Notes: generated from the sequence alone by a model not told the origin. Positions 9,929 through 51,179 are shown, counted from the stretch's first letter. The stretch: DNA of 54,807 nucleotides from an uncultured virus (IMG/VR IMGVR_UViG_3300034407_002805) (IMGVR_UViG_3300034407_002805), one strand, 5' to 3'. Program-made: numbers and translations.

Positions 9929-12421
9929 ATGTTTTATACTTCAGTAGTACGTTACGGTAATTCATTTCTTTACCGCGGGTATGACGCCGCCGGAAAGCGC
10001 GTCTATAAAAAAGATTCTTTCTCACCAAGACTGTTTGTGCCCTCAAAAGCTGAAACATCTTGGCGTGGTCTCGATGGTGCACCGATTGGACCGGTGGACT
10101 TTAAAACAATGCGTGAATGTCGACAGTGGCTTGATCAATATCGAGAAGTCGGTGGCTTCGACATTTACGGCAATCCTAATATGATCCAACAGTATATCGC
10201 TCATAAGTTTCCAAGAGATATTGAGTTTGATCGTGATATAATTAATGTCACCACAATCGATATTGAAACAGCGTATGAGGATGGATTTCCTGAACCAGAG
10301 AAAGCCAACCAAGAAGTCTTGGCCATCACCATCAAAAATAATATAGATGGCATATACCGCGTATGGGGTATGAAAGATTATGACGTTGGTTCTGCGCTTA
10401 TACAGCCAGTGCGTTATTATAAATGTAAAGACGAGGTTGACTTACTTCTAAAGTTTCTTGACTTTTGGCATGACCATCGCAATACGCCCGACGTTGTAAC
10501 AGGCTGGAACGTAAAGTTCTTTGATATACCTTACCTCGTTAATCGTGTTAACAACGTGCTTGGCGTGGATCAATGTAAAAAGTTCTCGCCTTGGGGTATG
10601 GTTGACTATTCAAAGATTGTCAAACGCGGCCGTGAACAAATCACATATAAACTGCAGGGCATACAAACTTTAGATTACCTTGATCTTTTCCAAAAGTTTG
10701 GATATACCTATGGCACCCAAGAATCTTATAAACTTAATCATATTGCGTACGTAGTCCTTGGCGAAAAGAAACTTTCTTACGCCGAAGAAGGTTCTCTACG
10801 TAACCTATACAAAGAAGACTTCCAAAAGTATATCGATTATAATATGAAAGATGTACAGTTGGTCGATAAACTCGAAGAAAAAATGGGTCTTATTACTTTG
10901 GCTATGACCGTGGCGTATAAAGGTGGTGTCAACTATCAAGATACGTTTGGTGTTGTTGCGATATGGGAATCAATCATATATCGTAAACTTAACTCACAGA
11001 AGGTTATGCCAAAGATCGAGCCTGATGAAATGGGCATACGTGATTTTGAAGGTGGCTACGTCAAAGAACCGCAAGTTGGTATGCATGATTGGGTAGTTTC
11101 TTTTGATTTGAATTCTTTGTATCCCAATATCATTGTGCAGTGGAACATGTCACCAGAAACTTTGAACAAAGATCCACAACTAAACATGCCAAGTGGTGTA
11201 CAAAACTATTTACACAAAGAAGAAAAACAGAATAGTAGTTATACTGTAGCAGCTAATGGTTCTACTTATCGTAAAGACTTTGACGGCGTGGTACCAAACA
11301 TCATTGTAGATTATTACGACGAACGTAAGTCAGTCAAGAACATGATGATTGCAGCAGAAAAAGAATATCAAAAATCTAAAACACCAGAACTCGAAAGAGA
11401 AATCAATCGACTCACAAACCAGCAGATGGCGATTAAAATTCTTATGAACTCTTTGTATGGTGCGATTGGTAACAAACACTTTCGTTATTATGATTTACGT
11501 ATCGCCGAAGGTATCACACTTACCGGTCAGCTTGCAATCAAGTGGGCAGAAAACGCTGTCAATGACGAGTTAAATAAGATACTTAAAACAGACGAAGACT
11601 ATGTTATCGCAATGGATACAGATTCGCTTTACATCAACTTTGGTCCTATGATTGAAAAGCTACAGCCAAAAGATCCAGTAAAGTTTCTTGATAAAATATG
11701 TGTAGAACACTTTGAACCTGTGCTTGCCAAAGCTTATAATAAATTATTTAATGTAATGAACTGCTACAAGCCACGTATGGAAATGGGCAGGGAAGTTATT
11801 GCAGATCGTGGTATATGGACGGCAAAGAAAAGATATATCCTCAATGTACATAACTCTGAAGGTGTACAGTACGCACAGCCTAAACTCAAGATCATGGGTA
11901 TTGAAGCTATCAAGTCTTCAACGCCAGAAGTATGCCGTGATAAATTTAAGCAGATATTTAACGTGATTATTACGGGCTGTGAAAAAGATACGCAGAAGTT
12001 TATACAAGATTTTAAGAATGAGTTTAGGTCACTACCACCTGAACAGGTCGCCTTCCCGCGTTCTGTAACAAACATTACAGATTACAAAGATCGCAAGACG
12101 ATATATAAGAAAGGTTCGCCTATTCACGTACGTGGTTCTTTAGTATATAACAAAGCACTCAAAGAATCTGGTATGATGCACAAGTATGAAGCAATCACAA
12201 ACGGTAGCCGTATCAAGTTTGTCTATATGAAAAAGCCTAACCTGGTACGTGAAAACGTAATTGCTTTTCCGGAAGTATTACCCGAAGAGTTCGGCGTAAC
12301 ACGCAACATAGACTATGATAAGCAATTCGAAAAAACTTTCTTGGAACCACTTGAACTTATACTCAATGCAGTTGGTTGGGATGCTGAAGAGAAAGTTACG
12401 TTGGAAGATTTCTTTGCATAA
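9929..12421 (+). CDS. 43: DNA polymerase gp43 (family B)
   Basis: DIET exonuclease motif, DLNSLYP, KILMNSLYG, MDTDS, KKRY. Confidence 0.97.
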   Translation: MFYTSVVRYGNSFLYRGYDAAGKRVYKKDSFSPRLFVPSKAETSWRGLDGAPIGPVDFKTMRECRQWLDQYREVGGFDIYGNPNMIQQYIAHKFPRDIEFDRDIINVTTIDIETAYEDGFPEPEKANQEVLAITIKNNIDGIYRVWGMKDYDVGSALIQPVRYYKCKDEVDLLLKFLDFWHDHRNTPDVVTGWNVKFFDIPYLVNRVNNVLGVDQCKKFSPWGMVDYSKIVKRGREQITYKLQGIQTLDYLDLFQKFGYTYGTQESYKLNHIAYVVLGEKKLSYAEEGSLRNLYKEDFQKYIDYNMKDVQLVDKLEEKMGLITLAMTVAYKGGVNYQDTFGVVAIWESIIYRKLNSQKVMPKIEPDEMGIRDFEGGYVKEPQVGMHDWVVSFDLNSLYPNIIVQWNMSPETLNKDPQLNMPSGVQNYLHKEEKQNSSYTVAANGSTYRKDFDGVVPNIIVDYYDERKSVKNMMIAAEKEYQKSKTPELEREINRLTNQQMAIKILMNSLYGAIGNKHFRYYDLRIAEGITLTGQLAIKWAENAVNDELNKILKTDEDYVIAMDTDSLYINFGPMIEKLQPKDPVKFLDKICVEHFEPVLAKAYNKLFNVMNCYKPRMEMGREVIADRGIWTAKKRYILNVHNSEGVQYAQPKLKIMGIEAIKSSTPEVCRDKFKQIFNVIITGCEKDTQKFIQDFKNEFRSLPPEQVAFPRSVTNITDYKDRKTIYKKGSPIHVRGSLVYNKALKESGMMHKYEAITNGSRIKFVYMKKPNLVRENVIAFPEVLPEEFGVTRNIDYDKQFEKTFLEPLELILNAVGWDAEEKVTLEDFFA

Positions 12422-12426
12422 AGTGG

Positions 12427-12455
12427 TTTACTTTTACGATAAAATGGAGTATAAT
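12427..12455 (+). promoter_or_regulatory. Early/middle promoter
   Basis: TTTACT-N17-TATAAT. Confidence 0.7.
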
Positions 12456-12462
12456 AGATATT

Positions 12463-12885
12463 ATGAGTAAAGATTGGGTACAAGATATTAATGACATGCA
12501 CAGCAAGTTTGGTGTGCGTAAATGGGTCAATGAACAAATCCAGTTTGGTGAAAAAGAAAAACTCGAAAAGTTTCTCGAGTTTCGTCTTAAATTTCTAGAA
12601 GAAGAACTTAACGAAACACGGGCCGCGGCTATAATGGATAAAAATCCTGAAGAAATTGTTGACGGTTTAATTGATCTGTGCGTTGTTGCTATTGGTACAC
12701 TGGATGCGTTTGGTGTTGATGCTCACAAAGCTTGGGATAAAGTACACAACGCAAACATGGCTAAAGAACCGGGTGTGAAAGAATCACGCCCTAATCCACT
12801 TGGCTTACCCGATCTGATTAAACCAGAAGATTGGAAGGGACCCGATCATCGTGACAACCACGGATATTTCATTCACAGTCTTTAA
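12463..12885 (+). CDS. MazG/PRA-PH-like all-alpha NTP pyrophosphohydrolase (candidate dCTPase/dUTPase)
   Basis: EEELNE...EIVDGLID (ExxE...ExxD), VHNANMAK, LIKPEDW. Confidence 0.8.
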   Translation: MSKDWVQDINDMHSKFGVRKWVNEQIQFGEKEKLEKFLEFRLKFLEEELNETRAAAIMDKNPEEIVDGLIDLCVVAIGTLDAFGVDAHKAWDKVHNANMAKEPGVKESRPNPLGLPDLIKPEDWKGPDHRDNHGYFIHSL

Positions 12886-13789
12886 TTCGATATTCGATAA
12901 TAAGACAGAAAAGCGTATGGATCTACCAGACTTTGACGCTTTTGAAAAGTTTTTACATAAACTATCAAAAGAAAAAAAGTCTTCTAAGAAAGACGCTGTA
13001 CTAATATCTCCTGCGACATATCAGCCTGACACTACACGCGCTAATGTTAACGTTGTAGAATGGTCAGGTTGGTGTGCTGTTGACGTTGATGATTTTGTAT
13101 ATGATGGAGAGTTAAAAGATGGAATTATTGAAAGAACTGGTAATTGGCGTTTCATCTGTTATTCTACTGCTAGTTCCACTAATGCTTTACCGAAGTTCAG
13201 AATTGTATTTCCACTTACGAGAAAGATACGAAATGACGAAATTTCAGCATTCAATTATGCCTTACAGAATGCACTCGGTAATCTTGGAGATGAGCAAACA
13301 AAAGACTTATCGAGAATGTATTATATACCTGCTGATTACGCTAACGCTTTTAATTTTATCTTTACTGGCGGCAGTGATTACATTGATCCTGACGCTTTAA
13401 TGAAGGAATATCCGTATGCACAAAAAGCAAACCTCAACAACTTCTTCGACAGATTGCCAGACGAAATCCAGCGACAAATCATTGAACACAGAAAAGGACA
13501 AATGGACAACACTAATGTGGTGTGGACGTCCTATCGCGATTGTCCCTTCTTTCCACGCAACCTTGAAGCAGAATACAGAACGATAAGCAATACCGGTTGG
13601 TACCACAAGATGTATCAGATCATGGTTGCTATCGCGGGTAACGCAGTCAAAAAGCAATATCCAATTACTGCAGCAGAAATATCTAAGATGTGTAGAGAAC
13701 TAGATATTGAAACTGGCAACTGGTATAAGAATCGTCCAATTGATAAAGAAGCAGACAGAGCGCTAGAATATGTTTATAAAAATATGTAA
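12851..13789 (+). CDS. AEP/primase-polymerase-like protein
   Basis: AVDVDD (DxD), YSTASS, KFRIVFPL, D-x2-TKDLSRMYY; helical C-terminal domain. Confidence 0.55.
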   Translation: MTTTDISFTVFNSIFDNKTEKRMDLPDFDAFEKFLHKLSKEKKSSKKDAVLISPATYQPDTTRANVNVVEWSGWCAVDVDDFVYDGELKDGIIERTGNWRFICYSTASSTNALPKFRIVFPLTRKIRNDEISAFNYALQNALGNLGDEQTKDLSRMYYIPADYANAFNFIFTGGSDYIDPDALMKEYPYAQKANLNNFFDRLPDEIQRQIIEHRKGQMDNTNVVWTSYRDCPFFPRNLEAEYRTISNTGWYHKMYQIMVAIAGNAVKKQYPITAAEISKMCRELDIETGNWYKNRPIDKEADRALEYVYKNM

Positions 13790-13797
13790 AAAAACTA

Positions 13798-13826
13798 TTT
13801 ACTTTCAATGAGAAATGGTGTATAAT
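13798..13826 (+). promoter_or_regulatory. Early promoter
   Basis: TTTACT-N17-TATAAT, A-rich UP region, GAGGAG RBS downstream. Confidence 0.75.
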
Positions 13827-13854
13827 AGATCTATAATTAAAGAGGAGCTTAATT

Positions 13855-14373
13855 GTGGATACTAAAATCATCGAATGGATGGATGAAATTAAACAAAGAA
13901 TTCTTTCCGGCGAAGAAGTCGGTGGTGTTACAGATCTATATAAATCATTAGGTGCATGTGTTGGTGAAAATATTGTTATTGACGCAATCAATGGTAAAGC
14001 TGCAAACGGTGAAGGTTATGATGCAATTTCTGGAGACAACCCGCATATACCAGCCGATAAGACTGTAGAAACAAAAGCTGCAATGCTATCGTCAGGAAAC
14101 AACTATATTGGAATTTATAACATTCAAACTAAAAGAGGTAAGTGTAATTATTTTGGTGTTGTTGACATGAATACTCGACGTGTATCACTTATTCCACATG
14201 ATGTAATGTTCTTTTATCTAGACAAAGGTGGTCCTCGAGGTGGCACACTTAAAAATTTTAAATGGTCAATGCATTATAATCAAACAAAACCAAATGGTAA
14301 AAAATGCCGCAGTAGAATTGAAGCTACTAAATTGTTTTTAGAGTACGAGGTAAAAAATGAAAGAATCAATTAA
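13855..14373 (+). CDS. Putative PD-(D/E)xK endonuclease
   Basis: VGE...GYDA...VETK pattern. Confidence 0.45.
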   Translation: MDTKIIEWMDEIKQRILSGEEVGGVTDLYKSLGACVGENIVIDAINGKAANGEGYDAISGDNPHIPADKTVETKAAMLSSGNNYIGIYNIQTKRGKCNYFGVVDMNTRRVSLIPHDVMFFYLDKGGPRGGTLKNFKWSMHYNQTKPNGKKCRSRIEATKLFLEYEVKNERIN

Positions 14374-14701
14374 AGTACTACAAGAATGTGCTGAACTACA
14401 AGCCAGGAAGTCTGAAGATTATCAGAACGAAGGTTCAAACGTACTGCAAGCTATGCACTATCGTCGTGGCGTAGACAGCCTACACGATATCATTCAAGGT
14501 AAGTGTTATCGTGCACAGTCACTACTTGAATCCGGTAGTGATCCAAACCATGAATCGCTCGAAGACACGTATAAAGATATTATTAACTACTGTTCTTTTG
14601 TAGTATCATATATGCGTGGCAAAATGGAAGGTCAACGACCTGATCGTGATATGTTTAATAAGCCAAAGGTGAAAGTCGATGCGCCAACTAGTAGTGAATG
14701 A
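14357..14701 (+). CDS. Nucleotide-modification-associated domain 1 (DUF1599-like)
   Basis: KSEDY...ESLEDTYKDIINY pattern; adjacent to the hydroxymethylase. Confidence 0.7.
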   Translation: MKESIKVLQECAELQARKSEDYQNEGSNVLQAMHYRRGVDSLHDIIQGKCYRAQSLLESGSDPNHESLEDTYKDIINYCSFVVSYMRGKMEGQRPDRDMFNKPKVKVDAPTSSE

Positions 14702-15341
14702 TATACGTGAATATTTTATTGGAGAACTAAATGATGAAGCCTTTACCACAGACAAAACCGGCCAAAATACGATCGAATTACTTGGCGCTTCATTTCTCGC
14801 TGATGAACCCTCAATCTTCGGAAATCCAAACGACGAATACATTAGCAGTGAAATTGATTGGTATGTTTCTGGTAGTACTAATGTCAATGATATTTATGCT
14901 GGGGATCGTCCTGCTCCTGAGGCATGGCAATATGCTGCAGATCAGTATGGGAACATAAATTCTAACTATGGTCATCTTATCTTTGATGATAAATACTATC
15001 GTCAGTACGATAATGTTTTAACGGAACTCGAAAATAATCGTGATTCTCGTAGAGCATCGATGGTTTATCAAAGACCAAGCATATGGGTAGAATATGTTGA
15101 AAACGGTAAGAATGATTTCATATGTACTAATGCTGTCACTTATTATATACGCAATGATGAATTACAGTCAGTGGTCCAAATGCGCTCAAACGATGTCGTG
15201 TTCGGATACAAAAATGACTATGCTTGGCAGCAGTATGTTTTGAAACAACTCGCAAATGATCTTAATATTGAACCAGGTTTTATAACTTGGCAAGTTCAAA
15301 ATCTTCACGTTTACGAAAGACATTTTCATCTTGTTAAATAA
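14679..15341 (+). CDS. 42: dCMP hydroxymethylase (T4 gp42-like, thymidylate synthase fold)
   Basis: EIDWY, INSNYG, DFICTN (catalytic Cys), MRSNDVVFGYKNDYAWQ (Asp at the dCMP-specificity site), LHVYERHF. Confidence 0.88.
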   Translation: MRQLVVNDIREYFIGELNDEAFTTDKTGQNTIELLGASFLADEPSIFGNPNDEYISSEIDWYVSGSTNVNDIYAGDRPAPEAWQYAADQYGNINSNYGHLIFDDKYYRQYDNVLTELENNRDSRRASMVYQRPSIWVEYVENGKNDFICTNAVTYYIRNDELQSVVQMRSNDVVFGYKNDYAWQQYVLKQLANDLNIEPGFITWQVQNLHVYERHFHLVK

Positions 15342-15792
15342 GTGGGACATTCGATACTTAAGCTTAGCCGATGAAGTAGCGCAGTGGTCAAAAGATCCGT
15401 CTACTAAAATTGGTGCTATCGCTGTAGGTAAGAAAGGTCAAGTCTTATCACAGGGTTATAATGGTTTTCCTCGTGGTATCGAAGACAAAGTAGAATACTA
15501 TAAAGATCGCGAAACAAAATACAAGTACGTAGTACACGCTGAAATGAATGTCATATATAATGCTACATATCATGGTGTTTGTTTAGAAGGCACTACACTA
15601 TACGTTACAGGTTTGCCCGTTTGCTCTGATTGTGCAAAGGGTATCATACAAGTCGGCATTACTAGAGTAGTAATGAAAGAAAGACTAACACCACAAAAGT
15701 GGGTAGAATCATGGAAGACTACATCTAAAATGTTTGACGAAGCAAATGTTAAATGGGAGTTTATCAATGTCAGCAACACAGGAATGGCTTAA
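15331..15792 (+). CDS. cd: dCMP deaminase
   Basis: SKDPSTKIGA, GYNGFPRG, HAEMN, PVCSDC. Confidence 0.92.
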   Translation: MLNKWDIRYLSLADEVAQWSKDPSTKIGAIAVGKKGQVLSQGYNGFPRGIEDKVEYYKDRETKYKYVVHAEMNVIYNATYHGVCLEGTTLYVTGLPVCSDCAKGIIQVGITRVVMKERLTPQKWVESWKTTSKMFDEANVKWEFINVSNTGMA

Positions 15793-15976
15793 AGAAAAAT
15801 TTCAAGAAGAAGCTGGACAAATGGCTTATAATAATATTCGATTGACTGAAGAAATAGAAGAGCTAAAAGCAAGATTAAAAAAAGTAGAAACTGACATGGC
15901 ATATACACAGAAGATTAGATTTGCTCAAAGTCCTGAAGAGCAAAGGATAAATGATATAAGGAATGTAGTAGATTGA
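15767..15976 (+). CDS. Hypothetical coiled-coil protein
   Basis: ORF with GGGAG RBS. Confidence 0.6.
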   Translation: MSATQEWLKEKFQEEAGQMAYNNIRLTEEIEELKARLKKVETDMAYTQKIRFAQSPEEQRINDIRNVVD

Positions 15977-16341
15977 TTTTAGTTGTTGGTCATAGTCCTT
16001 CTTCTAAAGAGTATTGTCCGAAGAAAGGCAATCCGTCTATCAACCGTCTTAACAGGTGGCTCGATGCATGTGGTGTGGATATATACAGCTTTACTAACCT
16101 GTGTGCACACCACAGTGAGTCTATCAAAGCAGCAGATATTGATGAAACATTGATAAAAGAATGTGTAAAACCTTATAATAAAGTAATAGCTTTAGGTAAT
16201 GAAGTAGCACATTATTTCAAGAAAAAAGGTATCGATTGCTTTCATGCACCTCACCCATCTCCACGTAACAGGAAGTTTAACGATAAAAGTTACGAATCAA
16301 CTGTAATTAATGGTTTACAAAAGTACATACATATGATATAA
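15973..16341 (+). CDS. Uracil-DNA glycosylase-like protein (minimal)
   Basis: VVGHSPS, FTNL, VIALG, HPSPRN UDG-superfamily motifs. Confidence 0.75.
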   Translation: MILVVGHSPSSKEYCPKKGNPSINRLNRWLDACGVDIYSFTNLCAHHSESIKAADIDETLIKECVKPYNKVIALGNEVAHYFKKKGIDCFHAPHPSPRNRKFNDKSYESTVINGLQKYIHMI

Positions 16342-16342
16342 T
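16314..16342 (+). promoter_or_regulatory. Promoter for the glycosylation operon
   Basis: TTTACA-N17-TATAAT. Confidence 0.7.
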
Positions 16343-16373
16343 ATACAATGTAATAAAGACATAAGGTGAGACT

Positions 16374-17597
16374 ATGAAAATTGTACATATACTTGGTCGC
16401 GGCATTGAAGGTTGCGGCGTGACTCGATTTACACTTGAGTTAAAAGACTGGGCACTAAACCAAGGTTGGAACTATACAGTATACGCACCAACCGATAAGA
16501 AATGGACACGTGCTTCATCACACTATCTAGACGAAAATATTAAACAATGGAAGTGGGGTAACAAGCCTGCCCGCGGAGACACGCTCTGCGGCACTGAATC
16601 GATTGTGGAAGATTGTAATAAGTCAGATCTTGTATTGATTGGTTCACTACCTTCTAAAGGCCACCCTGACGATTGCATAGAAAATTTTGGCAAATTAGTC
16701 AAAGGAATCAAAACTAAAAAAGTTATGATTCAGCACGATCATAAGATGATGTCAATTAAACGTAATGCATTGCTGGATGATGTGATTCAATCAGCTGACG
16801 TTATCTTTTCGTATTCTACTAAAAGTCCTTTTATGGAATACTGTAGAAAGATTGGGGCTAAAGGAAATATGTTTAACTTCTGCAACGGAGTTAACGTACA
16901 AAGAATCCGCGAACAATATTGGAAACCTATCGAAGAACAAGATCCTGATCACTTGAAATGGATTGGCCGGTCTGCGTATTGGAAAGGTTTTGACGTATTA
17001 TTCGATTTATATAAGAGTACTAAAGGTACTGACTTATTATACACATTGGAAGGAATGGAAAAGTCAATACAGTTCGTAGATATACGTAAAACTTTTGACT
17101 TCCACGAAATGGCTGAAGAGTTCGATGTAGAAACAAAACACGGCGAAAAACCTTATGTCTTTGGTGCGTTTAAACATAGTGAAATGTTAGAACGTATGTC
17201 ACGCTGTGGCTTTGGTTTTCAACTAACAACTCTTCAGCCAGAATATATTCAAAACTTTATTGAGTTTACGCACTTAGAAATCGTTGCTTGTGGTGTGATA
17301 CCTATTTTTAGAAAAGCTTTCGGTGATCACTGCACACATTTGCAAACCGGCAATAAACTTACTGCAGATAAAAACACTGGTACTATATGGGCAGGTGAAG
17401 TAGGCACAGACTGGAGTGAAACTATTGAAGTCATAAATAAACTTAGAAAAGATAATGGAATGCGTAATGAGTGGCGTGAAATGGCGTATGAATATTATGC
17501 ATCACACAATGGTCCAGATGTATCGTTTCCCGATATATTCAGTAAGATTGATAAACCTGCTGAAGGTCCATCTGATTTATCTGAATTCTTTGGTTAG
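16374..17597 (+). CDS. agt: DNA glycosyltransferase, T4 alpha-glucosyltransferase (AGT) homolog
   Basis: RGIEGCGVTRF, TRASSH, QHDH, WIGRSAYWKGF, SEMLERMS.CGFGFQL, EFTHLEIVACGVIP match T4 AGT along its length. Confidence 0.88.
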   Translation: MKIVHILGRGIEGCGVTRFTLELKDWALNQGWNYTVYAPTDKKWTRASSHYLDENIKQWKWGNKPARGDTLCGTESIVEDCNKSDLVLIGSLPSKGHPDDCIENFGKLVKGIKTKKVMIQHDHKMMSIKRNALLDDVIQSADVIFSYSTKSPFMEYCRKIGAKGNMFNFCNGVNVQRIREQYWKPIEEQDPDHLKWIGRSAYWKGFDVLFDLYKSTKGTDLLYTLEGMEKSIQFVDIRKTFDFHEMAEEFDVETKHGEKPYVFGAFKHSEMLERMSRCGFGFQLTTLQPEYIQNFIEFTHLEIVACGVIPIFRKAFGDHCTHLQTGNKLTADKNTGTIWAGEVGTDWSETIEVINKLRKDNGMRNEWREMAYEYYASHNGPDVSFPDIFSKIDKPAEGPSDLSEFFG

Positions 17598-17606
17598 GAG
17601 TATAGA

Positions 17607-18557
17607 ATGAAAATAGTAATTACAGGCTGTGCTGGTTTTATTGGTTTTCACTTAGCACAAAAGTTAAGAGCAGGTAATAAGGTGTCAGGCATTGACAACT
17701 TTAATAGTTATTATGACGTTGATTTAAAAAGAGCAAGAGATAAAATCTTAAAACACTCGTTTGGTATTCATGTTGAACCTGTCGATTTACGTAAAAAAAA
17801 CCAACTTATCAAGCGCTTGGCATATTGTAAGCCAGACATTGTGATTCACTTAGCTGCCATGGCAGGTGTTAGACATTCGATGGATGATCCAGAAGCTTAT
17901 ATCGAAAATAATATTGTCGGTACACACAATTTGATTGAAGCTTGTGATCTTCTTAACATTGATAAAGTAGTGTATGCTTCTACATCTTGCGTAATGGCAG
18001 GCAACCCGCTACCTTGGAAAGAGGATGAAAAACTCGGTGTGGCAAAGAATCCATATGGATACTCAAAAGCCACGAACGAAGCACAGTTTATTTCTTCACA
18101 GATTGATTCAACAATCGGTCTAAGGTTCTTTACTGTCTATGGTCCTTGGGGTCGACCAGACATGGCTCTGTTTGATTTTACTAAAAGTATTATAGAAGAA
18201 AAACCCATTAAGCTTTTTAACAATGGTGATATGGTTCGCGACTTTACTTACGTTGATGATATTGTACAGGGTATAAAAATTGTCATAGATAGAATAAATG
18301 AAAACTCAGGTATCAACGAGATTTATAATATTGGTTATGGTCAGCAAGTACAACTCATGGATTTTGTAAATCACATTGAACAAAATTTAGGTAGAAAAGC
18401 TATCAAAGAGTTTGTGCCTATGCACCCAGCCGATACGCATAAAACTTGGTCTGATACGAATAAATTAAGAAAACTTGGATATTCACCAGAAACTCCAATA
18501 GGTAGAGGTGTATACGAGTTTGTTAAATGGTATAAGGATTATTATCATGTCAATTAA
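17607..18557 (+). CDS. UDP-glucuronate 4-epimerase-like extended SDR
   Basis: TGCAGFIG, HLAAMAGVRHS, YGYSK, RFFTVYGPWGRPDMA, RDFTYVDDIV. Confidence 0.85.
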   Translation: MKIVITGCAGFIGFHLAQKLRAGNKVSGIDNFNSYYDVDLKRARDKILKHSFGIHVEPVDLRKKNQLIKRLAYCKPDIVIHLAAMAGVRHSMDDPEAYIENNIVGTHNLIEACDLLNIDKVVYASTSCVMAGNPLPWKEDEKLGVAKNPYGYSKATNEAQFISSQIDSTIGLRFFTVYGPWGRPDMALFDFTKSIIEEKPIKLFNNGDMVRDFTYVDDIVQGIKIVIDRINENSGINEIYNIGYGQQVQLMDFVNHIEQNLGRKAIKEFVPMHPADTHKTWSDTNKLRKLGYSPETPIGRGVYEFVKWYKDYYHVN

Positions 18558-19374
18558 TATTGCAATCATAGGTCATGGGTACGTAGGTAAAGCTGTAGAT
18601 CATGGTTTTTCTACGAGTCAAGTTTCAAAATATATTGTAGACCCGATATACGGTTATCCTACTATCGAAGATCTTGTTGGTAAGATACGTTTAGACGCAG
18701 CTTTTGTCTGTGTACCTACGCCGTTTGGTGAAGATGGAAAGATTGACGCTTCGATCGTTAAAGATTCAGTACGTAAACTGTCTGGTGCTATGTGTCCGAT
18801 TGTAGTAAAGTCTACCACTACACCTGATGTTATTGAAGAACTTTATTTAGAAAATGAAAACGTAATTTACAACCCAGAGTTCTTGACAGAAAAGAATGCT
18901 TTACACGATTTTATCAATCCACCTATGCATGTTCTTGGTGGTAAGAGACAGTATACTAATAAAGTATTAGAACTCTATGAAAACTACTCGCAGTGCACAC
19001 CATGTCCAGCATACCACATGACTGCCAAAGAAGCGTCATTCGTAAAGTACGGAATCAATTCATTCTTAGCAAGTAAAGTCTTATGGTTCAATCAGTTTAA
19101 AGATGTAGTAGAAAACTGGGATGCTAAGTATAACGTAATTGTTAACGCCATAGGTACTGATCCACGTATTGGCCATAGTCATACACAAGTGCCAGGCCCA
19201 GACGGTAGAAAAGGTTTTGGTGGTGCTTGTTTCCCAAAAGATACAAATGCTTTCTGTGCTTTTGCTGAAGGTGACCTGCCAGTTCTTAAGAAGATTATCG
19301 AAGAAAACAATAAATACAGAAGTCAATATGAACTCGATGATCGTGAAAAAGAACAGAAAGTAAGTTATGTCTAA
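18547..19374 (+). CDS. ugd: UDP-glucose/GDP-mannose 6-dehydrogenase (short form)
   Basis: GHGYVG, CVPTP, KSTT, NPEFL, GFGGACFPKD with catalytic Cys; lacks the C-terminal domain. Confidence 0.85.
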   Translation: MSINIAIIGHGYVGKAVDHGFSTSQVSKYIVDPIYGYPTIEDLVGKIRLDAAFVCVPTPFGEDGKIDASIVKDSVRKLSGAMCPIVVKSTTTPDVIEELYLENENVIYNPEFLTEKNALHDFINPPMHVLGGKRQYTNKVLELYENYSQCTPCPAYHMTAKEASFVKYGINSFLASKVLWFNQFKDVVENWDAKYNVIVNAIGTDPRIGHSHTQVPGPDGRKGFGGACFPKDTNAFCAFAEGDLPVLKKIIEENNKYRSQYELDDREKEQKVSYV

Positions 19375-20563
19375 TTATGCGAGTATTATACCACTTATTG
19401 GCGGTGAAACAATCGCCATGCAAAATGTATTTAAGAAGAAACCGGAGTATATATTAAGCTATGAACCGTTTAAAGCAAACGATACTCACCTTGTTGAGTA
19501 CTATCAACGCAAAGTTCCCTATCATTTGTTGGGAGACAACGGGGTGGACAACCTACCTAGTGTCGATGTTGTTAATACCGTATGTCCTTGTGCTGGGCTT
19601 AGCAGTCTTAGTACTACAGCATCTACTAATTCTGCTGCTAACGATTGGATGCCTACCACAGCTCGTTATGTTTTGGGTACACTCTCACCTCGAGTATTCT
19701 GGGGCGAGAACGCACCAAGACTCGCTTCAGCGATGGGACAACCTATTGTCGAAAATCTCCGAGAAATCGGTAAAGAGTTTGGATACACTTTCAGCATTTT
19801 TAAAACGAAGTCTATCCTTCATGGATTGAGTCAAGTCAGGGATAGAACGTTTTATTTCTTTTGGAAAGGTGATAAAGTACCAGTCTTTGAATATATAAAA
19901 AGGGAACACGAAAAAATAGAAGACACGATACGTTCCGTGAAACGTGATCCACAGGATCCAATGAATGTACTTACTAATAAACGTGTTCCATCTGAAGATC
20001 CTTTTTATCGTTATATTCTAGAAGAACTAGAAAACAATGTTAGCCACAGCCAGTTTCAAGAAAAGTTGACAAAGTCGACTGATGCACTTTGGTACATAGA
20101 ACAACACGTTACCTATGATAAAGTTGCTAAGTGGATGGATAAGAATGGTTTTGATAAAAAAGCTGAACGCTGTCGTACTATGTATGAAAAGTTAAAGGCT
20201 GGTGGTAATGTAATGAGAAGAGGTGTGTACGTGCCTAAAGACTACATAGGTGCGTTTGTAGGCGCACTACCTACAATGTGTACACACCCAGATGAAGATA
20301 GATTTCTAACTATTAGAGAATGTTTAAGCATTATGAAATTACCTAATGATTTTATATTACAAGGTGGTCTTAAAAACTTAAATCATATATGTCAAAACGT
20401 TCCTGTCAACACTGCAATGGACATGGCTGAACACGTACTGAAATATCTCGATGGAAGACTCGATAACCGTATGATCGACACAGATTACTTAGTACAAGAT
20501 AATAAGAATATGACATTGAATTACAAAAAAGATAGTGTACAACTTGACGCATTTATGGTATAA
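19367..20563 (+). CDS. C5-cytosine DNA methyltransferase-like protein
   Basis: PCAGLS (IV), ENAP (VI), QVRDRTFY (VIII), RFLTIREC (IX), QNVP (X); motif I is atypical (IPLIGG). Confidence 0.75.
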   Translation: MSNYASIIPLIGGETIAMQNVFKKKPEYILSYEPFKANDTHLVEYYQRKVPYHLLGDNGVDNLPSVDVVNTVCPCAGLSSLSTTASTNSAANDWMPTTARYVLGTLSPRVFWGENAPRLASAMGQPIVENLREIGKEFGYTFSIFKTKSILHGLSQVRDRTFYFFWKGDKVPVFEYIKREHEKIEDTIRSVKRDPQDPMNVLTNKRVPSEDPFYRYILEELENNVSHSQFQEKLTKSTDALWYIEQHVTYDKVAKWMDKNGFDKKAERCRTMYEKLKAGGNVMRRGVYVPKDYIGAFVGALPTMCTHPDEDRFLTIRECLSIMKLPNDFILQGGLKNLNHICQNVPVNTAMDMAEHVLKYLDGRLDNRMIDTDYLVQDNKNMTLNYKKDSVQLDAFMV

Positions 20564-20564
20564 T
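20536..20564 (+). promoter_or_regulatory. Promoter upstream of uvsX
   Basis: TGTACA-N17-TATAAT. Confidence 0.6.
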
Positions 20565-20565
20565 A

Positions 20566-20730
20566 ATGGATGATTTAGCGGACAAACTAAAAGTTGTTTT
20601 GCAAGAACTTAGTGATGTTATGAAACAACGTAAAGATAAGATCGAAGAAATACGTAATCAAATAACAGTACTTGAAAATATGAATGAAGATCTTGATCGC
20701 AAGATCAGTGAAATAATGAGGGACTTTTAA
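20566..20730 (+). CDS. Small coiled-coil protein (54 aa)
   Basis: MDDLADKLKVVLQELSDV...; TAATG overlap with uvsX. Confidence 0.5.
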   Translation: MDDLADKLKVVLQELSDVMKQRKDKIEEIRNQITVLENMNEDLDRKISEIMRDF

Positions 20731-21776
20731 TGTCAATAATGGACAAACTAAAAAAGAATAGTAAGATCAAAGAAACTTCTATTCTTGCAGATTCTAAATT
20801 CTTTACAGAAAAAGATATGGTTGCAACCGACGTACCAATGATGAACGTTGCACTATCTGGTTCTGTTGACGGTGGGTTGGCGCCAGGTCTTACTGTGCTT
20901 GCCGGTCCATCCAAACATTTTAAAACTTCGTTTGGTCTTATCATGGCCAGCGCTTACTTGAAAAAATATAAAGATGCCGTGCTTCTGTTCTATGATTCAG
21001 AGTTTGGTTCACCGCAAGCTTACTTCCAACAGTTCGATATTGATACAGAACGTGTACTACACACGCCTATTACTAATGTAGAAGAACTAAAGTTTGATAT
21101 TATCGCACAGATGGAAGGTCTCGATCGCAACGATAAAGTTATTGTGATGATCGATTCAGTCGGCAACCTTGCATCGAAAAAAGAATTAGAAGATGCTATC
21201 AACGAAAAGTCGGTTGCTGATATGTCACGTGCCAAAGCACTCAAAGGCTTGTTCCGTATGACTACACCATATTTAAATATGAAGAACATCCCATTGATTG
21301 CTGTAAATCATACGTACATGGAGATTGGTTTATTTCCAAAAGCAATCGTGTCAGGTGGCACGGGTATTTACTACTCAGCTGATAACATCTGGATTCTTGG
21401 TCGTCAACAGGACAAGCAGGGCACAGAGATTAAAGGTTATCACTTTGTAATTAACGTGGAGAAATCAAGGTATGTCAAAGAAAAGTCTAAAATACCTATT
21501 AGCGTGTCTTGGGATGGCGGTGTTCAGTCTTACAGCGGCTTACTCGACGTCGCCCTTGCAGGCAATTACGTTGCTAAGCCTAGTAACGGTTGGTACTGTC
21601 GTGTTGATCGAACTACTGGAGAACTCATCGATCCAAAAGTACGAGAGAAAGACACCTTGGAAGAACAATTCTGGTTACCAATCTTTGAGTCCACGGATTT
21701 CAAAGATTACATTAAATCCAAATTTGCCATCGGAGGAAAGAGCGTCAATGAGCTTGTACTCGAAGATACCGCATAA
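20730..21776 (+). CDS. uvsX: UvsX RecA-like recombinase
   Basis: AGPSKHFKT, FYDSEFG, DSVGNLASKKE, SGGTGIYYSAD. Confidence 0.96.
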   Translation: MSIMDKLKKNSKIKETSILADSKFFTEKDMVATDVPMMNVALSGSVDGGLAPGLTVLAGPSKHFKTSFGLIMASAYLKKYKDAVLLFYDSEFGSPQAYFQQFDIDTERVLHTPITNVEELKFDIIAQMEGLDRNDKVIVMIDSVGNLASKKELEDAINEKSVADMSRAKALKGLFRMTTPYLNMKNIPLIAVNHTYMEIGLFPKAIVSGGTGIYYSADNIWILGRQQDKQGTEIKGYHFVINVEKSRYVKEKSKIPISVSWDGGVQSYSGLLDVALAGNYVAKPSNGWYCRVDRTTGELIDPKVREKDTLEEQFWLPIFESTDFKDYIKSKFAIGGKSVNELVLEDTA

Positions 21777-22068
21777 AGAAAACGTAACTTATTCACTTGT
21801 CCCTGGAGAAAGTGGTGACCAACATTGGTTAGTGAGATTTACTGAAGGTCCATTTGCTGAAACAGTAATTCAGTACGGTGCCATCAAGCTAATACCTGAA
21901 GATGACGGTAAAATCTCATTTAACTTTTTTGTTGAGTCATCACCGGATCCAAACTTGACGAGTGAAGACGTAGATTTACAGTTATGGTCAGGTGATGTAC
22001 TCGAAGAAATATTAAGACAATCACTTGAAGAAGGATCAGCACAAATATTTGAAGAACCTACTCAATGA
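21748..22068 (+). CDS. Conserved hypothetical protein (position of T4 gp40)
   Basis: Start at MSLYSK; sits between uvsX and gp41. Confidence 0.6.
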   Translation: MSLYSKIPHKENVTYSLVPGESGDQHWLVRFTEGPFAETVIQYGAIKLIPEDDGKISFNFFVESSPDPNLTSEDVDLQLWSGDVLEEILRQSLEEGSAQIFEEPTQ

Positions 22069-22490
22069 AAATTTTAATATGTGGTTTGCCTGGCTCAGGT
22101 AAATCTACACTTGCAGAGCCACTCTCTCGATTATTAGATGGAGTATGGATAAACGCTGATGAAGTACGTACACATTATGATGACTGGGATTTTTCAATTG
22201 AAGGTAGAATAAGACAAGCTGAAAGAATGTCTTATATTGCTGATGGGGTTGTTATGGCAGGTAAAATTGCTATAGCAGATTTCATAGCACCTACTGAAAA
22301 AATGCGTGAGATATATGATCCTAATTATTTAGTATGGATTGATACAATTGATAATTCAGGATTTCCAGATACTGATGCAATGTTTGAACCACCTTCTAAT
22401 CCAAACTATCACGTAAGTAAATGGTTTGATGATACTCATACTCAGCTTTTGGAAATCGTTTCGAATTGGATGAAGCGTAATGAAATTTGA
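22065..22490 (+). CDS. Adenylylsulfate (APS) kinase-like P-loop kinase
   Basis: GLPGSGKST, NADEVR, DWDFSIEGRIRQ, FIAP, FEPP. Confidence 0.75.
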   Translation: MKILICGLPGSGKSTLAEPLSRLLDGVWINADEVRTHYDDWDFSIEGRIRQAERMSYIADGVVMAGKIAIADFIAPTEKMREIYDPNYLVWIDTIDNSGFPDTDAMFEPPSNPNYHVSKWFDDTHTQLLEIVSNWMKRNEI

Positions 22491-22836
22491 TCCTACTAAA
22501 CCAACTTCGCAAATGTTAGGTAGATTTCAACCTTGGCATAGTGGACACACTGAACTTTTTAAAAAGATTCATGCTGAAACTGGTCAAGTAATTATTATGA
22601 TAAGAGATACTATAATTGATAAAAATAATCCTTATCATAAATTAGAAGTAAAAGAAAAAATTACTTCAACACTCATAAATGAAGGGTTTACTTTCTGCAT
22701 AGATTTTGATATAATGGTAGTACCAAACATAACTAACATTGGTTATGGTCGTAACGTTGGTTATACTATGACTAAATATAAACTTGATGATGATATAGAA
22801 AAAATATCGGCAACGGATATACGGAATGCAAGCTAA
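22480..22836 (+). CDS. HxGH nucleotidyltransferase (cytidylyltransferase-like)
   Basis: GRFQPWHSGH, NPY, YGRNVGY, ISATDIR. Confidence 0.8.
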   Translation: MKFDPTKPTSQMLGRFQPWHSGHTELFKKIHAETGQVIIMIRDTIIDKNNPYHKLEVKEKITSTLINEGFTFCIDFDIMVVPNITNIGYGRNVGYTMTKYKLDDDIEKISATDIRNAS

Positions 22837-24202
22837 TCTCGAATTAACTATCTTACGCAACATATTAACAGACGAAAAATATATGCGTAAGGTGTTACCT
22901 TTCGTCAAACCAGATTACTTTGAAGGGATTTATCGTATCCTATTTAAAGAGGCTGGTAAGTACGTTGGAAAATATAATAAACTTCCAACTGCAGAATCAT
23001 TTAAAGTTGAGATCGATCAGTCAGATAGACTTAGTGGTGAAAACTACACGGTAGCAGTTGACCTTGTGCCACAGTTATTTTCGAAAGAAAAGATTGATGA
23101 ACAGTGGCTTGTTGATACTACAGAAAAGTGGTGCCAAGATCGAGCGATATATAATGCTATCATGGAATCTATATCGATCATCGATGGAAAGCATGAAACT
23201 CTAACTAAGGGAGCGTTACCTGACCTGCTTTCCAAAGCATTAGGTGTAGCGTTTGATACAAACGTTGGCCACGACTACATTGAAAACCAAGAAGAACGAT
23301 ACGAATTTTATCACCAACAAGAAGATCGCATTCCTTTCGACCTGGAATACTTTAACAAGATCACCAAAGGTGGTGTTCCTAATAAAACACTTAATATTGC
23401 TTTGGCAGGCACTGGTGTTGGCAAGTCTCTTTTTATGTGCCATGTTGCTGCTTCGGCTCTTGTACAGGGTAGGGACGTTCTTTATATAACGATGGAAATG
23501 GCGGAAGAAAGAATCGCCGAACGTATTGATGCTAACTTACTTAACACACCTATCGATCAACTTACGAATCTATCGAAAGAAATGCATAGAACTAAAGTTG
23601 AAGACATAGCGCGTAAGACTACAGGTAAGTTGATTATTAAAGAATATCCTACTGGCTCTGCACACACCGGTCACTTTCGTGCATTGCTCAATGAATTAAA
23701 ACTAAAGAAGCAGTTTGAACCACAGATTATTTTTATTGATTATCTTAATATCTGTGCTTCTTCTCGCATGAAAGGAATGGGTGGTGCAATCAACTCCTAC
23801 AATTACATTAAAGCAATTGCTGAAGAATTACGTGGCCTTGCGGTCGAGTTCAACGTACCGCTCTTCTCTGCAACGCAAACGACTCGTTCTGGTTATAGTA
23901 ACTCGGATGTTGGGCTTGAAGATACGTCCGAGTCTTTTGGATTACCCGCGACCGCGGACTTAATGTTTGCTATTATATCTACAGAAGAATTACAAAACCG
24001 TGGTCAAATGATGGTCAAACAATTGAAGAATAGATATAATGACCCAGTGGCAAACAGGCGTTTTGTGATTGGTGTTGATCGATCTAAGATGCGTTTATAT
24101 GACGTAGATGAAAGTGAACAGGATCTTACTGACGATACGCCAGTTTTTGAGAAAACACAAGCACACGAAGAAATGTCAAAATTTAAGGATTTCAAGCTAT
24201 GA
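22826..24202 (+). CDS. 41: Replicative helicase gp41 (DnaB-like)
   Basis: AGTGVGKS, ITMEMAEE, IKEYPT, IDYLNIC, ATQTTR, SESFGLPATAD. Confidence 0.96.
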   Translation: MQANLELTILRNILTDEKYMRKVLPFVKPDYFEGIYRILFKEAGKYVGKYNKLPTAESFKVEIDQSDRLSGENYTVAVDLVPQLFSKEKIDEQWLVDTTEKWCQDRAIYNAIMESISIIDGKHETLTKGALPDLLSKALGVAFDTNVGHDYIENQEERYEFYHQQEDRIPFDLEYFNKITKGGVPNKTLNIALAGTGVGKSLFMCHVAASALVQGRDVLYITMEMAEERIAERIDANLLNTPIDQLTNLSKEMHRTKVEDIARKTTGKLIIKEYPTGSAHTGHFRALLNELKLKKQFEPQIIFIDYLNICASSRMKGMGGAINSYNYIKAIAEELRGLAVEFNVPLFSATQTTRSGYSNSDVGLEDTSESFGLPATADLMFAIISTEELQNRGQMMVKQLKNRYNDPVANRRFVIGVDRSKMRLYDVDESEQDLTDDTPVFEKTQAHEEMSKFKDFKL

Positions 24203-24408
24203 TTTATAGAGGACCAGGAATTAGTACGTATTGGGGAAGCGATGAGTATGAAGATCGCAGAGCTGAAGTTATGAAAAATGAATTAGGCTTTTATATCGAT
24301 ATGTACAGAAAAGATAAGCTCGTTGAATCTAGGCCTCTATACGAACACAGCCAAATGTATGCAGAAAGTGCTGCAGAAAATTATGTTATGGGAATTCTTA
24401 ATCCATGA
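24199..24408 (+). CDS. Hypothetical protein
   Basis: ORF with ATGA overlaps; YAESAAENYV motif. Confidence 0.7.
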   Translation: MIYRGPGISTYWGSDEYEDRRAEVMKNELGFYIDMYRKDKLVESRPLYEHSQMYAESAAENYVMGILNP

Positions 24409-25073
24409 ATGTACGATTAATTAGTTATAGCAAACCTCCGGAGGAAATCTATGTTGGGGAAAATATCCAAGAACTCATTGCGTATACAGCCCGTGTCTCG
24501 AACCCATCGAACCAAGACAACACCGAAACGTCAGAAAGATTACTACGATACCTCATTAGAGAAAAACACTGGTCGCCATTTGAAATGGTTAGCGCTTGCT
24601 TGGAAGTAACAACAACTAGAGACATTGCTCGACAACTCTTAAGACATAGGTCGTTTTCTTTTCAAGAGTTTAGTCAAAGATATGCAGACCCTACACAAGA
24701 TCTTAAATTTCAATTGAGGGATGCTCGTTTACAAGATACCAAAAATAGACAAAATAGTATCGATACAGATGATACAGATTTACAGTTAGAATGGTTTAAA
24801 CAACAATCGGAGGTAGTGAATGTTTCAAAGAAAGCATATGGGTGGGCAATTGAAAAAGGTATCGCCAAAGAACAGGCTCGATCAGTTTTACCGGAAGGTA
24901 TTATGGAATCTCGATTGTATGTTAACGGAACCATCAGGTCCTGGATTCATTATATCGAATTACGCAGCGGTCATGGCACACAAAAAGAACACATACAACT
25001 CGCAGTAGAATGTGCGAAAGCTTTAGAACCTATCTTTCCTATGATTATGGAGTTTTGTAATGAAAAAAATTAA
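24405..25073 (+). CDS. thyX: Flavin-dependent thymidylate synthase
   Basis: HWSPFE, RHRSFSFQEFSQRY (RHRx7S), ARSVLP, TQKEH. Confidence 0.95.
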   Translation: MNVRLISYSKPPEEIYVGENIQELIAYTARVSNPSNQDNTETSERLLRYLIREKHWSPFEMVSACLEVTTTRDIARQLLRHRSFSFQEFSQRYADPTQDLKFQLRDARLQDTKNRQNSIDTDDTDLQLEWFKQQSEVVNVSKKAYGWAIEKGIAKEQARSVLPEGIMESRLYVNGTIRSWIHYIELRSGHGTQKEHIQLAVECAKALEPIFPMIMEFCNEKN

Positions 25074-25362
25074 CTATAAATTTAATGAAAAAGAATTAAT
25101 AAAAGAGTTTCAAGAATATATTGATTCAACGTATAGCGGACACTACTCAAAAGATAACTTTCAAGCTACTGAGTTTATTATTGACGGCGGCCATGGCACT
25201 GGGTTCTGCATTGGTAATGTACTAAAGTACGCACAAAGATATGGTAAAAAAGGTATGGCTTCAGATGCTAGAAAAGATTTAATGAAAGTCTTACACTATG
25301 CTTTGATTCAATTATACGTTCATGATGTTGAAGAAGACTTGCCGTTGTTTGATAGACGCTGA
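25060..25362 (+). CDS. DUF3310-like protein
   Basis: HYS...FCIGNVLKYAQRYGKK...DLMKVLHY. Confidence 0.7.
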   Translation: MKKINYKFNEKELIKEFQEYIDSTYSGHYSKDNFQATEFIIDGGHGTGFCIGNVLKYAQRYGKKGMASDARKDLMKVLHYALIQLYVHDVEEDLPLFDRR

Positions 25363-25511
25363 CATTCAACCTTGAAATTTTTCCTAGTAATATCCATAAA
25401 GGTTTCGTATACTCTTTCTCTATGATACTCACAAGTCTCTAAGTCTTTGTAAGTCAAGTGATCAAAGTTATATACATTAGCTCCTATGTGGATAAGAATC
25501 GCGTACAGCAT
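25320..25511 (-). CDS. Small hypothetical protein with Cys pair
   Basis: Hydrophobic N-terminus; YKDLETC...VEC. Confidence 0.55.
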   Translation of the reverse strand: MLYAILIHIGANVYNFDHLTYKDLETCEYHRERVYETFMDITRKNFKVECQRLSNNGKSSSTS

Positions 25512-49511: not shown

Positions 49512-49790
49512 ATGGCTGATACAACTAATCAAAGACTTGATAGGATAGAGGAAAAGCTCGATAGGTTAGCTGAGGCCATGATTGCACTTGCGCGCGCAGA
49601 GGAAAAACTTGCTGCAATGCAAAGAAATCAAGAGAATAATCATGAACGTGTGAATAAGTTGTCTGTTAAATTAGATGACATTGAAAAAAAGGTGGACACT
49701 AATCACCGTACAGTATGCCTTATAAATAAACTAGTATACGCTGCTCTGATCGCAGCGGTCGGAGCGTATGTGGCTCAACTATGGTTGTAG
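49512..49790 (+). CDS. Coiled-coil protein with C-terminal TM
   Basis: RLDRIEEKLD heptads followed by a hydrophobic tail. Confidence 0.7.
   Translation: MADTTNQRLDRIEEKLDRLAEAMIALARAEEKLAAMQRNQENNHERVNKLSVKLDDIEKKVDTNHRTVCLINKLVYAALIAAVGAYVAQLWL
49721..49728 (+). promoter_or_regulatory. Late promoter
   Basis: TATAAATA about 70 nt upstream of 49800. Confidence 0.55.
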
Positions 49791-49799
49791 GAGAAAAAA

Positions 49800-51168: not shown

Positions 51169-51179
51169 TATATAATGTT

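Follow-up and report, generated by a model that had tools for sequence, protein, structure and literature searches.

A predicted module for uronic acid modification of hydroxymethylcytosine in a marine T4-like phage

When a T4-like phage encodes a homolog of the T4 alpha-glucosyltransferase (AGT) in the same packed unit as enzymes of uronic acid metabolism, which sugar does it place on its DNA, and on which base? This question is raised by a 54,807-nucleotide stretch from an uncultured virus (IMG/VR IMGVR_UViG_3300034407_002805), hereafter termed the window, whose gene content identifies the source of these 54.8 kb as a T4-like myovirus of marine type. Between its DNA polymerase gene and uvsX, a gene for an AGT homolog is followed by genes for a UDP-glucuronate 4-epimerase-type enzyme, a short UDP-glucose-6-dehydrogenase-like (Ugd-like) enzyme and a C5-cytosine-methyltransferase-like (C5-MTase-like) protein, with a dCMP hydroxymethylase encoded nearby. 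We put the chances at about even that this block is a pre-replicative cytosine hypermodification module, in which a uronic acid would be attached to 5-hydroxymethylcytosine (hmC); as a prediction made from genes alone, it is plausible. The features that it involves are as follows.

14679-15341, plus strand: T4 gp42-type dCMP hydroxymethylase (PDB 1b49, E 5.8e-66; PF00303, E 4.5e-18)
16314-16342, plus strand: sigma-70-type promoter-like site, TTTACA-17-TATAAT with TG before the -10 element (consensus match only)
16374-17597, plus strand: T4 alpha-glucosyltransferase homolog (AGT, GT-B; PF11440, E 2.1e-52; PDB 1xv5, E 2.4e-62)
17607-18557, plus strand: UDP-glucuronate 4-epimerase-type short-chain dehydrogenase/reductase (SDR), UDP-glucuronate (UDP-GlcA) to UDP-galacturonate (UDP-GalA) (PDB 5u4q, E 6.2e-77; 6zl6, E 6.4e-49)
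18547-19374, plus strand: short UDP-glucose-6-dehydrogenase-like enzyme, 275 aa (PF03721, E 4.2e-16; PF00984, E 1.9e-14)
19367-20563, plus strand: divergent C5-cytosine-methyltransferase-fold enzyme (PF00145, E 1.5e-16, residues 37-357)

The cassette and its enzymes

The five genes named in the original prediction were all found on the plus strand where it had placed them, both by reading of the sequence and by profile and PDB matches. It had further described the last four as a tightly packed unit driven by one promoter and lying next to the hydroxymethylase gene. The packing of the last four genes was borne out, as the AGT stop codon is separated from the epimerase ATG by 9 nt, with AGGAG ahead of that ATG, the epimerase and Ugd-like reading frames overlap by 11 nt and those of the Ugd-like and C5-MTase-like proteins by 8 nt (all read from the sequence); a sequence scan revealed no convincing terminator inside the four-gene block. 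The promoter amounts to a favorably located consensus match, short of proof. The site at 16314-16342 lies 32 nt ahead of the AGT ATG, has 11 of 12 consensus matches and is among the three best within 12000-25500, where a second 11/12 site occurs at 16150. Since the number of promoter-like sites in this region is no higher than in shuffled sequence (51 versus 48.3 +/- 6.6), it is position alone that counts in favor of the site at 16314. The hydroxymethylase gene is near the unit rather than next to it, the dCMP deaminase gene and two small open reading frames (ORFs) separating it from AGT.

With regard to the base, alignment to the T4 enzyme (1b49) pairs the catalytic Cys context FICTN of the window hydroxymethylase with FMCTN of T4, and it places Asp at the equivalents of E. 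coli ThyA L143, D169 and N177 (strings KNDYAW, NDFIC and RSND), RSND being identical to T4 at the D169 position. According to a 2026 study, RB69-type homologs make 5-hydroxy-dCMP and are diagnosed by an Asn that aligns with E. coli ThyA Asp169, while Asp at the N177 position signifies dCMP and not dUMP, with an acidic residue also expected at the L143 position (PMC13326640). Asp at the 169, 177 and 143 positions points to an enzyme of the hydroxymethylating, dCMP-specific type, and the window's thymidylate-synthase homolog is, by this signature, predicted to be a T4-type hydroxymethylase that makes 5-hydroxymethyl-dCMP. The original prediction had left the acceptor as either hmC or 5-hydroxycytosine. 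The first of these is supported by the T4 hydroxymethylase signature; the signature of 5-hydroxy-dCMP synthases is absent, and with Asp in place of the RB69-type Asn at the ThyA-169 equivalent the base should be hmC, so that 5-hydroxycytosine was rejected. Ordinary dTMP synthesis is covered by a thyX gene (24405-25073), and Pfam scans of the window gave no match to the TET/JBP family.

The AGT homology is full-length, covering PF11440 profile positions 1-353 of 355 and aligning residues 1-392 with residues 2-399 of 1xv5, at approximately 32% identity to T4 AGT; the AGTs of named phages are all at most 34% identical to that of the window. It is also the sole glycosyltransferase recognized in the 54.8-kb window. 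Pfam scans returned no other glycosyltransferase family there, and the window contained no match to a TET-associated glycosyltransferase (TAGT) or a beta-glucosyltransferase-like (beta-GT-like) protein.

The identity proposed for the epimerase was upheld, its nearest solved relatives being UDP-GlcA 4-epimerases. Behind 5u4q, which was deposited under a dehydratase name and which we take to be a Klebsiella uronate epimerase, the PDB ranking runs from the Bacillus cereus UDP-GlcA 4-epimerase (6zl6, E 6.4e-49) through MoeE5 (E 2.3e-32) and GalE (approximately 1e-23) to UXS (approximately 5e-18). Alignment to 6zl6 indicates that the window enzyme keeps all equivalents of B. cereus T126, S127, Y149, K153, T178 and R185; the Thr/Ser numbering agrees with a count along the alignment. 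No NCBIfam model matched the epimerase above its cut-off. The residues that contact the uronate carboxylate are kept, including R185, which in the B. cereus enzyme holds the carboxylate of UDP-GalA (PMC12338863).

The UDP-glucose 6-dehydrogenase of the original prediction was recovered in part. The NAD-binding and central domains are present, with the motifs GHGYVG and GFGGACFPKD and the catalytic Cys, whereas the C-terminal UDP-binding domain PF03720 is absent, the protein stopping approximately 45 residues past that Cys. Consistent with this outline, TIGR03026 matches over profile positions 77-297 of 413 only, and UDP-glucose dehydrogenases in the PDB align only to about residue 291-321 of their 390-480. 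Accidental truncation does not account for the short form: the alignment with ten relatives, at 46-78% identity, runs over the entire length and includes a conserved tail (consensus Y-ELDDREKEQNVNY). The catalytic Cys, NPEFLTE and K...N motifs show no variation across 10 of 10 family members aligned. The family has a steady length of 270-290 aa, and the best 120 of 2148 homologs in the protein collection are 229-293 aa long and have only PF03721 and PF00984. A separate PF03720 was found neither in the complete genome of Phage C48C1 nor in four large related contigs, using a search that detected the domain in 13 of 14 control genomes. Given the missing PF03720, we have filed the enzyme as Ugd-like and not as a member of the UDP-glucose 6-dehydrogenases. 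The short gene is widespread among marine viral contigs, with at least 592 contigs encoding it; matches in phage records number seven, namely C48C1, a record of uncultured type, at 43% identity and six others at 28-32%.

Similar C-terminal tails are found on the polymerase (TLEDFFA, 12395-12421), AGT (DLSEFFG, 17571-17597) and the C5-MTase-like protein (QLDAFMV, 20537-20563). Most relatives keep a polymerase-like tail; the epimerase and the Ugd-like protein have none. The shared tails suggest docking on the sliding clamp. We give no weight either way to a complex prediction of the clamp (4000-4677) and the 50 C-terminal residues of the C5-MTase-like protein, which scored 0.30 with the mark set at 0.34. 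Judging from the title of a 2004 paper by Sommer et al., an interaction of the T4 alpha-glucosyltransferase with gp45 is said to be on record.

Linkage of the cassette in related loci

Two sets of loci were assembled from related viruses. The first was seeded with AGT and comprises 36 IMG/VR loci, 35 of which are assessable and one of which ends inside AGT. The second was seeded with the Ugd-like protein; the best 80 of at least 592 matching contigs were kept, 78 of them new and 50 having at least 3 kb of sequence upstream. The linkage of ugd and epimerase to agt that the original prediction called for in relatives was only partly realized. An epimerase gene directly follows AGT in 16 of the 35 assessable loci, and the Ugd-like gene comes next in 15 of these, the remaining locus (L006) ending within the epimerase gene. 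These 16 loci consist of 12 in which AGT is 76-100% identical to that of the window and four in which it is only 33-35% identical, and the linked AGTs form two lineages that are 33-35% identical to each other.

In the Ugd-seeded loci, the Ugd-like gene sits between a primase-like gene and uvsX. AGT is present in 8 of the 50 loci with sufficient upstream sequence, and all eight also have the epimerase and C5-MTase-like genes, while a TAGT (PF20691) is present in 23, with 21 detected by tblastn and two more by Pfam. A close epimerase gene accompanies ugd in 38 of the 78 loci. In three loci (L043, L046 and L047), the slot of AGT is held by a 363-aa protein for which Pfam, a PDB sequence search and BLASTP against another uncharacterized protein yielded nothing, and a protein atlas gave a weak glycosyltransferase lead. 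An AlphaFold2 model of the L047 protein (pLDDT 89.7, pTM 0.88) has the T4 beta-glucosyltransferase 1qkj as its best fold match (E 1.2e-8, TM 0.59), and we consider the 363-aa protein, as modeled, to be beta-GT-like. The epimerase-Ugd pair is found directly behind three kinds of DNA glycosyltransferase, comprising the two AGT lineages and the putative beta-GT-like fold.

The history of the transferase disagrees with that of the sugar genes, the transferase being swapped while ugd stays similar. In L006-L012, AGT is 84-86% identical to that of the window, compared with 63-64% for the hydroxymethylase, 53-54% for the epimerase, 58-59% for ugd and 53-56% for the C5-MTase-like gene. Conversely, in loci that have the beta-GT-like protein or the other AGT type, ugd is 67-79% and the C5-MTase-like gene 60-76% identical to those of the window. 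The pattern in L006-L012 points to a recent exchange of the transferase gene alone.

Two further arrangements were encountered among the Ugd-seeded loci. A 456-aa protein without a Pfam match lies between the primase-like gene and ugd/epimerase (L049:3346-4716, L058:2744-4132 and L064:5374-6747); the loci that encode it have a TAGT but no hydroxymethylase, and the protein may help create the acceptor base in TAGT loci. Elsewhere, ugd loci contain other sugar-donor sets in this same slot, consisting of either Kdo-8-phosphate synthase with CMP-Kdo synthetase, or a cupin, a phosphomannomutase and a cytidylyltransferase.

L069, 1472-2906: other sugar-donor set in a ugd locus
L092, 6495-8004: other sugar-donor set in a ugd locus

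The predicted base and its alternatives

In the pathway that we favor, the gp42-type enzyme would produce 5-hydroxymethyl-dCMP, which by analogy with T4 would be phosphorylated and then incorporated into the phage genome instead of cytosine. The short Ugd-like dehydrogenase would convert UDP-glucose to UDP-glucuronate, the epimerase would equilibrate UDP-glucuronate with UDP-galacturonate, and the single AGT homolog would attach the hexuronic acid to DNA at the hydroxymethyl group, giving (alpha-)galacturonosyl- or glucuronosyl-hmC. More generally, whatever DNA glycosyltransferase is encoded ahead of the epimerase-Ugd pair would receive UDP-GlcA/UDP-GalA from that pair, and the recurrence of the pair behind DNA glycosyltransferases of different families supports a uronic acid donor for DNA. 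That the phage DNA carries a uronic acid on hmC is, in our estimate, evenly poised between true and false; were it to do so, the hexuronic acid would most likely be galacturonic acid because an epimerase is present.

The original prediction regarded this base as new, a view that no longer holds. According to a 2023 preprint by Pyle et al., a metagenomic phage glycosyltransferase expressed in E. coli with its partner epimerase gave hexuronic-acid-5hmC, a nucleoside of 433 atomic mass units (bioRxiv 10.1101/2023.12.21.572611). The "subclass II" glycosyltransferase pathways outlined there resemble the window in having a DNA glycosyltransferase with an adjacent sugar epimerase, and their product is the base predicted here. 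As far as the pathway descriptions can be compared, however, 5hmC in those systems arises post-replicatively through a C5-methyltransferase and a TET-like dioxygenase at sites defined by the methyltransferase, and UDP-GlcA came from E. coli, whereas the window has gp42-type hmC, an AGT-type glycosyltransferase and a Ugd-like gene of its own. The T-even glucosyl-hmC system shares with the window a homologous hydroxymethylase, dCMP deaminase and full-length AGT, the location between polymerase and uvsX and a pre-replicative route. It differs in that the window lacks a beta-glucosyltransferase, has a MazG-type enzyme (its role being inferred) where the gp56 dCTPase would be expected, and carries AGT in an operon-like unit with epimerase, Ugd-like and C5-MTase-fold genes that T4 lacks.

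Two other systems offer partial parallels. The arabinosyl-5-hydroxycytosine phages RB69 and DLP3 are likewise T4-like with a thymidylate-synthase homolog (PMC13326640; PMC6024577), and they encode sugar-donor genes and DNA glycosyltransferases between polymerase and uvsX (PMC6024577); in addition to lacking the diagnostic Asn at ThyA-169, where it has Asp, the window differs in its sugar pathway and transferases. In Bacillus phage SP-15, glucuronolactone-1-phosphate is attached to dihydroxypentyluracil, and a phage UDP-glucose dehydrogenase has been proposed as the supplier (PMC5977210). SP-15 thus shares with our predicted pathway a uronic acid on phage DNA and a phage-encoded UDP-glucose dehydrogenase, but its base is derived from uracil/thymine, the attachment is a phosphodiester and the gene set is unrelated (PMC5977210).

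Several observations weigh against a uronic acid on hmC. In 19 of the 35 assessable AGT loci, the C5-MTase-like gene comes straight after AGT, and epimerase and Ugd-like genes are lacking; the pair also occurs without AGT. Among the 50 Ugd-seeded loci, 19 show neither AGT nor TAGT in the available sequence, and 40 of the 78 lack a close epimerase gene; there are loci with ugd alone beside uvsX. Because the Ugd-like enzyme lacks the UDP-binding domain and no separate copy was found in five related records, its use of UDP-glucose is putative. The AGT donor pocket, which the original prediction had proposed to examine for a basic residue near C6, offers no change pointing to a uronate donor. This comparison used an alignment of 26 distinct AGTs, in which both ugd-linked lineages were set against the unlinked ones; five columns separate the two groups, and only one has the same residue in both linked lineages, that of Lys116 (T4 Val109), which no unlinked AGT has at this position. 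Lys116 lies at the start of a beta-strand and, from that position, is probably far from the donor site; it was rejected as a uronate-donor marker since donor contact is unlikely there. Furthermore, an unlinked AGT lineage that is 64-69% identical to the window AGT has the same QHDH, MLER and GFGxQL motifs. Finally, accessory genes are known to accumulate in the interval from polymerase to uvsX, a hot spot of this kind (PMC6024577), so some co-location is to be expected anyway.

It is from these observations that a more conventional explanation draws its strength, according to which AGT puts plain host glucose on hmC as in T4, and the epimerase and Ugd-like enzyme are an independent accessory pair in the hot spot that might serve a second glycan step, the glycans of the virion or host envelope, or a rewiring of host sugar nucleotides. 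AGT commonly occurs in lineages that lack the pair, sister AGTs with and without the linkage have motifs of the active-site region in common, and some Ugd loci have other sugar-nucleotide genes with no glycosyltransferase in view. Phage C48C1 is a further case, as its ugd/epimerase pair lies approximately 14 kb from its only recognized DNA glycosyltransferase-like gene, a member of the beta-GT-like family that is the middle gene of a three-gene cluster (49583-53030; L134:4584-8031; E 1.1e-90 to a profile built for this analysis), and its genome revealed no thymidylate-synthase homolog, AGT or TAGT. An independent pair sits poorly, however, with the translational coupling of AGT, epimerase and Ugd-like genes, with the recurrence of that coupling behind three transferase types, with the location of the genes among early replication genes rather than structural genes, and with the experimental precedent for an epimerase-dependent uronic acid modification of DNA (bioRxiv 10.1101/2023.12.21.572611). 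We therefore regard plain glucosylation as unlikely, while taking it seriously as an account of the locus.

The acid could conceivably be made on the DNA itself, with AGT transferring glucose and the domain-less Ugd-like enzyme then oxidizing C6 of the DNA-bound glucose to give glucuronate. The loss of the UDP-binding domain throughout the family (among the best 120 of 2148 homologs) with every catalytic motif kept, and the lack of a separate UDP-binding domain in related genomes, would both suit such a reaction, which would also explain why unrelated transferases can be swapped ahead of ugd and why the linked AGTs have no change in the donor pocket. It is at odds with the partner epimerase, which is full-length with its UDP-GlcA/GalA carboxylate residues intact, implying a UDP-uronate pool, and with a Ugd-like protein that has no polymerase-like tail and no recognizable DNA-binding part; an intact nucleotide-sugar epimerase and a tail-less Ugd together argue for that pool. 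We know of no precedent for the oxidation of a DNA-bound sugar. On-DNA oxidation consequently seems improbable to us; if true, the Ugd-like protein would provide the first known case of a DNA-bound sugar being remodeled by an enzyme. Similarly slim, in our judgment, are the prospects that the final base is something else, either a processed or multi-sugar glycan or a product on which the C5-MTase-fold enzyme also acts, with uronyl-hmC at best an intermediate. The C5-MTase-fold gene does follow the transferase or ugd in 30 of the 36 AGT-seeded loci and has AGT-like or thymidylate-synthase-like genes in its vicinity in Bacillus phage G, Pseudoalteromonas phage XG4 and cyanophage S-TIM5, and the above preprint also reports phage glycosyltransferases assembling di- and trisaccharides on 5hmC (bioRxiv 10.1101/2023.12.21.572611). 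Yet one glycosyltransferase alone is recognized in the window, a Pfam scan revealed no decarboxylase, aminotransferase or acyltransferase adjoining the cassette, and the C5-MTase-fold gene is equally present without ugd and epimerase, independently of the acid sugar.

Should the uronic acid pathway prove true, uronic acid glycosylation of cytosine would be widespread in the native DNA of ocean T4-like phages and no laboratory curiosity, and the added negative charge in the major groove would bear upon packaging, upon restriction and glycosylase defenses, and upon recovery in sequencing. Three enzymes are of particular interest here: an AGT that may use a uronate donor, a dehydrogenase without a UDP-binding domain, and a C5-MTase-fold enzyme of hmC phages.

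The C5-methyltransferase-fold gene and the surrounding interval

The C5-MTase-like protein is a divergent member of its fold, its best methyltransferase match in the PDB reaching only E 1.5e-3. The motifs PLxGG, PCAGLS, ENAP, Q.R.R and QNVP are invariant in the family (24 of 24 aligned members for the last four), and we take the latter strings to be motifs IV (the catalytic Pro-Cys), VI, VIII (QxRxR) and IX/X, with Ala standing where the canonical forms have Gln and Val. The AdoMet-binding motif I, canonically FxGxG, is PL[IV]GG as assigned by reading of the alignment, and the Pfam match does not cover it; at the motif II position the residue varies between E, S, D and A, while an acidic residue is kept at the place of motif III. 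Relatives of the gene include the following.

L038, 9001-10218: relative of the C5-MTase-like gene
L131, 6755-8035: relative of the C5-MTase-like gene
L132, 5423-6556: relative of the C5-MTase-like gene

Of the six AGT-seeded loci without the gene, three end too early and three run 1.1-3.9 kb past ugd. The gene occurs together with gp42 and TAGT in L119 and L128 and is absent from TAGT loci that lack gp42. Since it follows AGT with or without ugd/epimerase, it tracks hmC and the transferase and not the acid sugar, and is no part of the sugar supply. We propose that the putative C5-MTase-fold enzyme acts apart from the sugar genes as an hmC-linked partner of the transferase, on DNA in which little unmodified cytosine should be left; a literature search for a C5-MTase-fold partner of gp42-type systems found no paper. 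The only named phages with the gene are the S-TIM5 group, Pseudoalteromonas phage XG4, in which a gp42-like gene is 4.6 kb away, and Bacillus phage G, in which it is near an AGT-like gene and a sugar-1-phosphate thymidylyltransferase gene. Members of the family accompany a hydroxymethylase or AGT in phages from widely separated lineages, marine T4-like phages included.

The wider window encodes a replication set consisting of gp46/47-like nuclease subunits, sliding clamp, clamp loader, RegA, family B polymerase, UvsX and a gp41-type helicase, as well as ThyX, 2-oxoglutarate dioxygenases and a PstS-like protein. Among named records the nearest is Phage C48C1 (Kyanoviridae), whose proteins are 43-78% identical, and AGT was not found in the 15 kb of G001, the nearest genome record. 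All genes in the interval from polymerase (9929-12421) to uvsX (20730-21776) are on the plus strand. Their order is MazG-type pyrophosphohydrolase, primase-like gene, an ORF without assignment, DUF1599, thymidylate-synthase homolog and dCMP deaminase, then two small ORFs (one weakly similar to uracil-DNA glycosylase, UDG), AGT, SDR epimerase, Ugd-like and C5-MTase-like genes. Those not listed above are assigned as follows.

9929-12421, plus strand: family B DNA polymerase, gp43-like (Pfam PF00136, PF03104)
12463-12885, plus strand: MazG/PRA-PH-type nucleotide pyrophosphohydrolase (PF01503, E 3.8e-10; PHROG 671, E 4e-23)
14357-14701, plus strand: DUF1599 ("nucleotide modification associated domain 1") protein (PF07659, E 3.2e-7)
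15331-15792, plus strand: dCMP deaminase (PF00383, E 1e-19; PHROG 174, E 2.4e-43)
15973-16341, plus strand: small UDG-superfamily protein, 122 aa (PF03167, E 1.6e-4, under the curated cut-off)

The MazG-type gene has the same synteny in relatives that have gp42, and its product is a candidate for the dCTP-clearing enzyme. The DUF1599 gene overlaps the start of the hydroxymethylase gene and adjoins gp42 in relatives, and homologs of the 122-aa UDG-like ORF hold the same slot directly upstream of the transferase in many relatives. Downstream of uvsX, at 22065-22836, an ORF for an adenylylsulfate (APS)-kinase-like P-loop kinase and a cytidylyltransferase-like ORF overlap by 11 nt and jointly match PHROG 10255. 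The pair looks like a split or two-part enzyme, which could be an hm-dCMP kinase or a sugar-activating enzyme.

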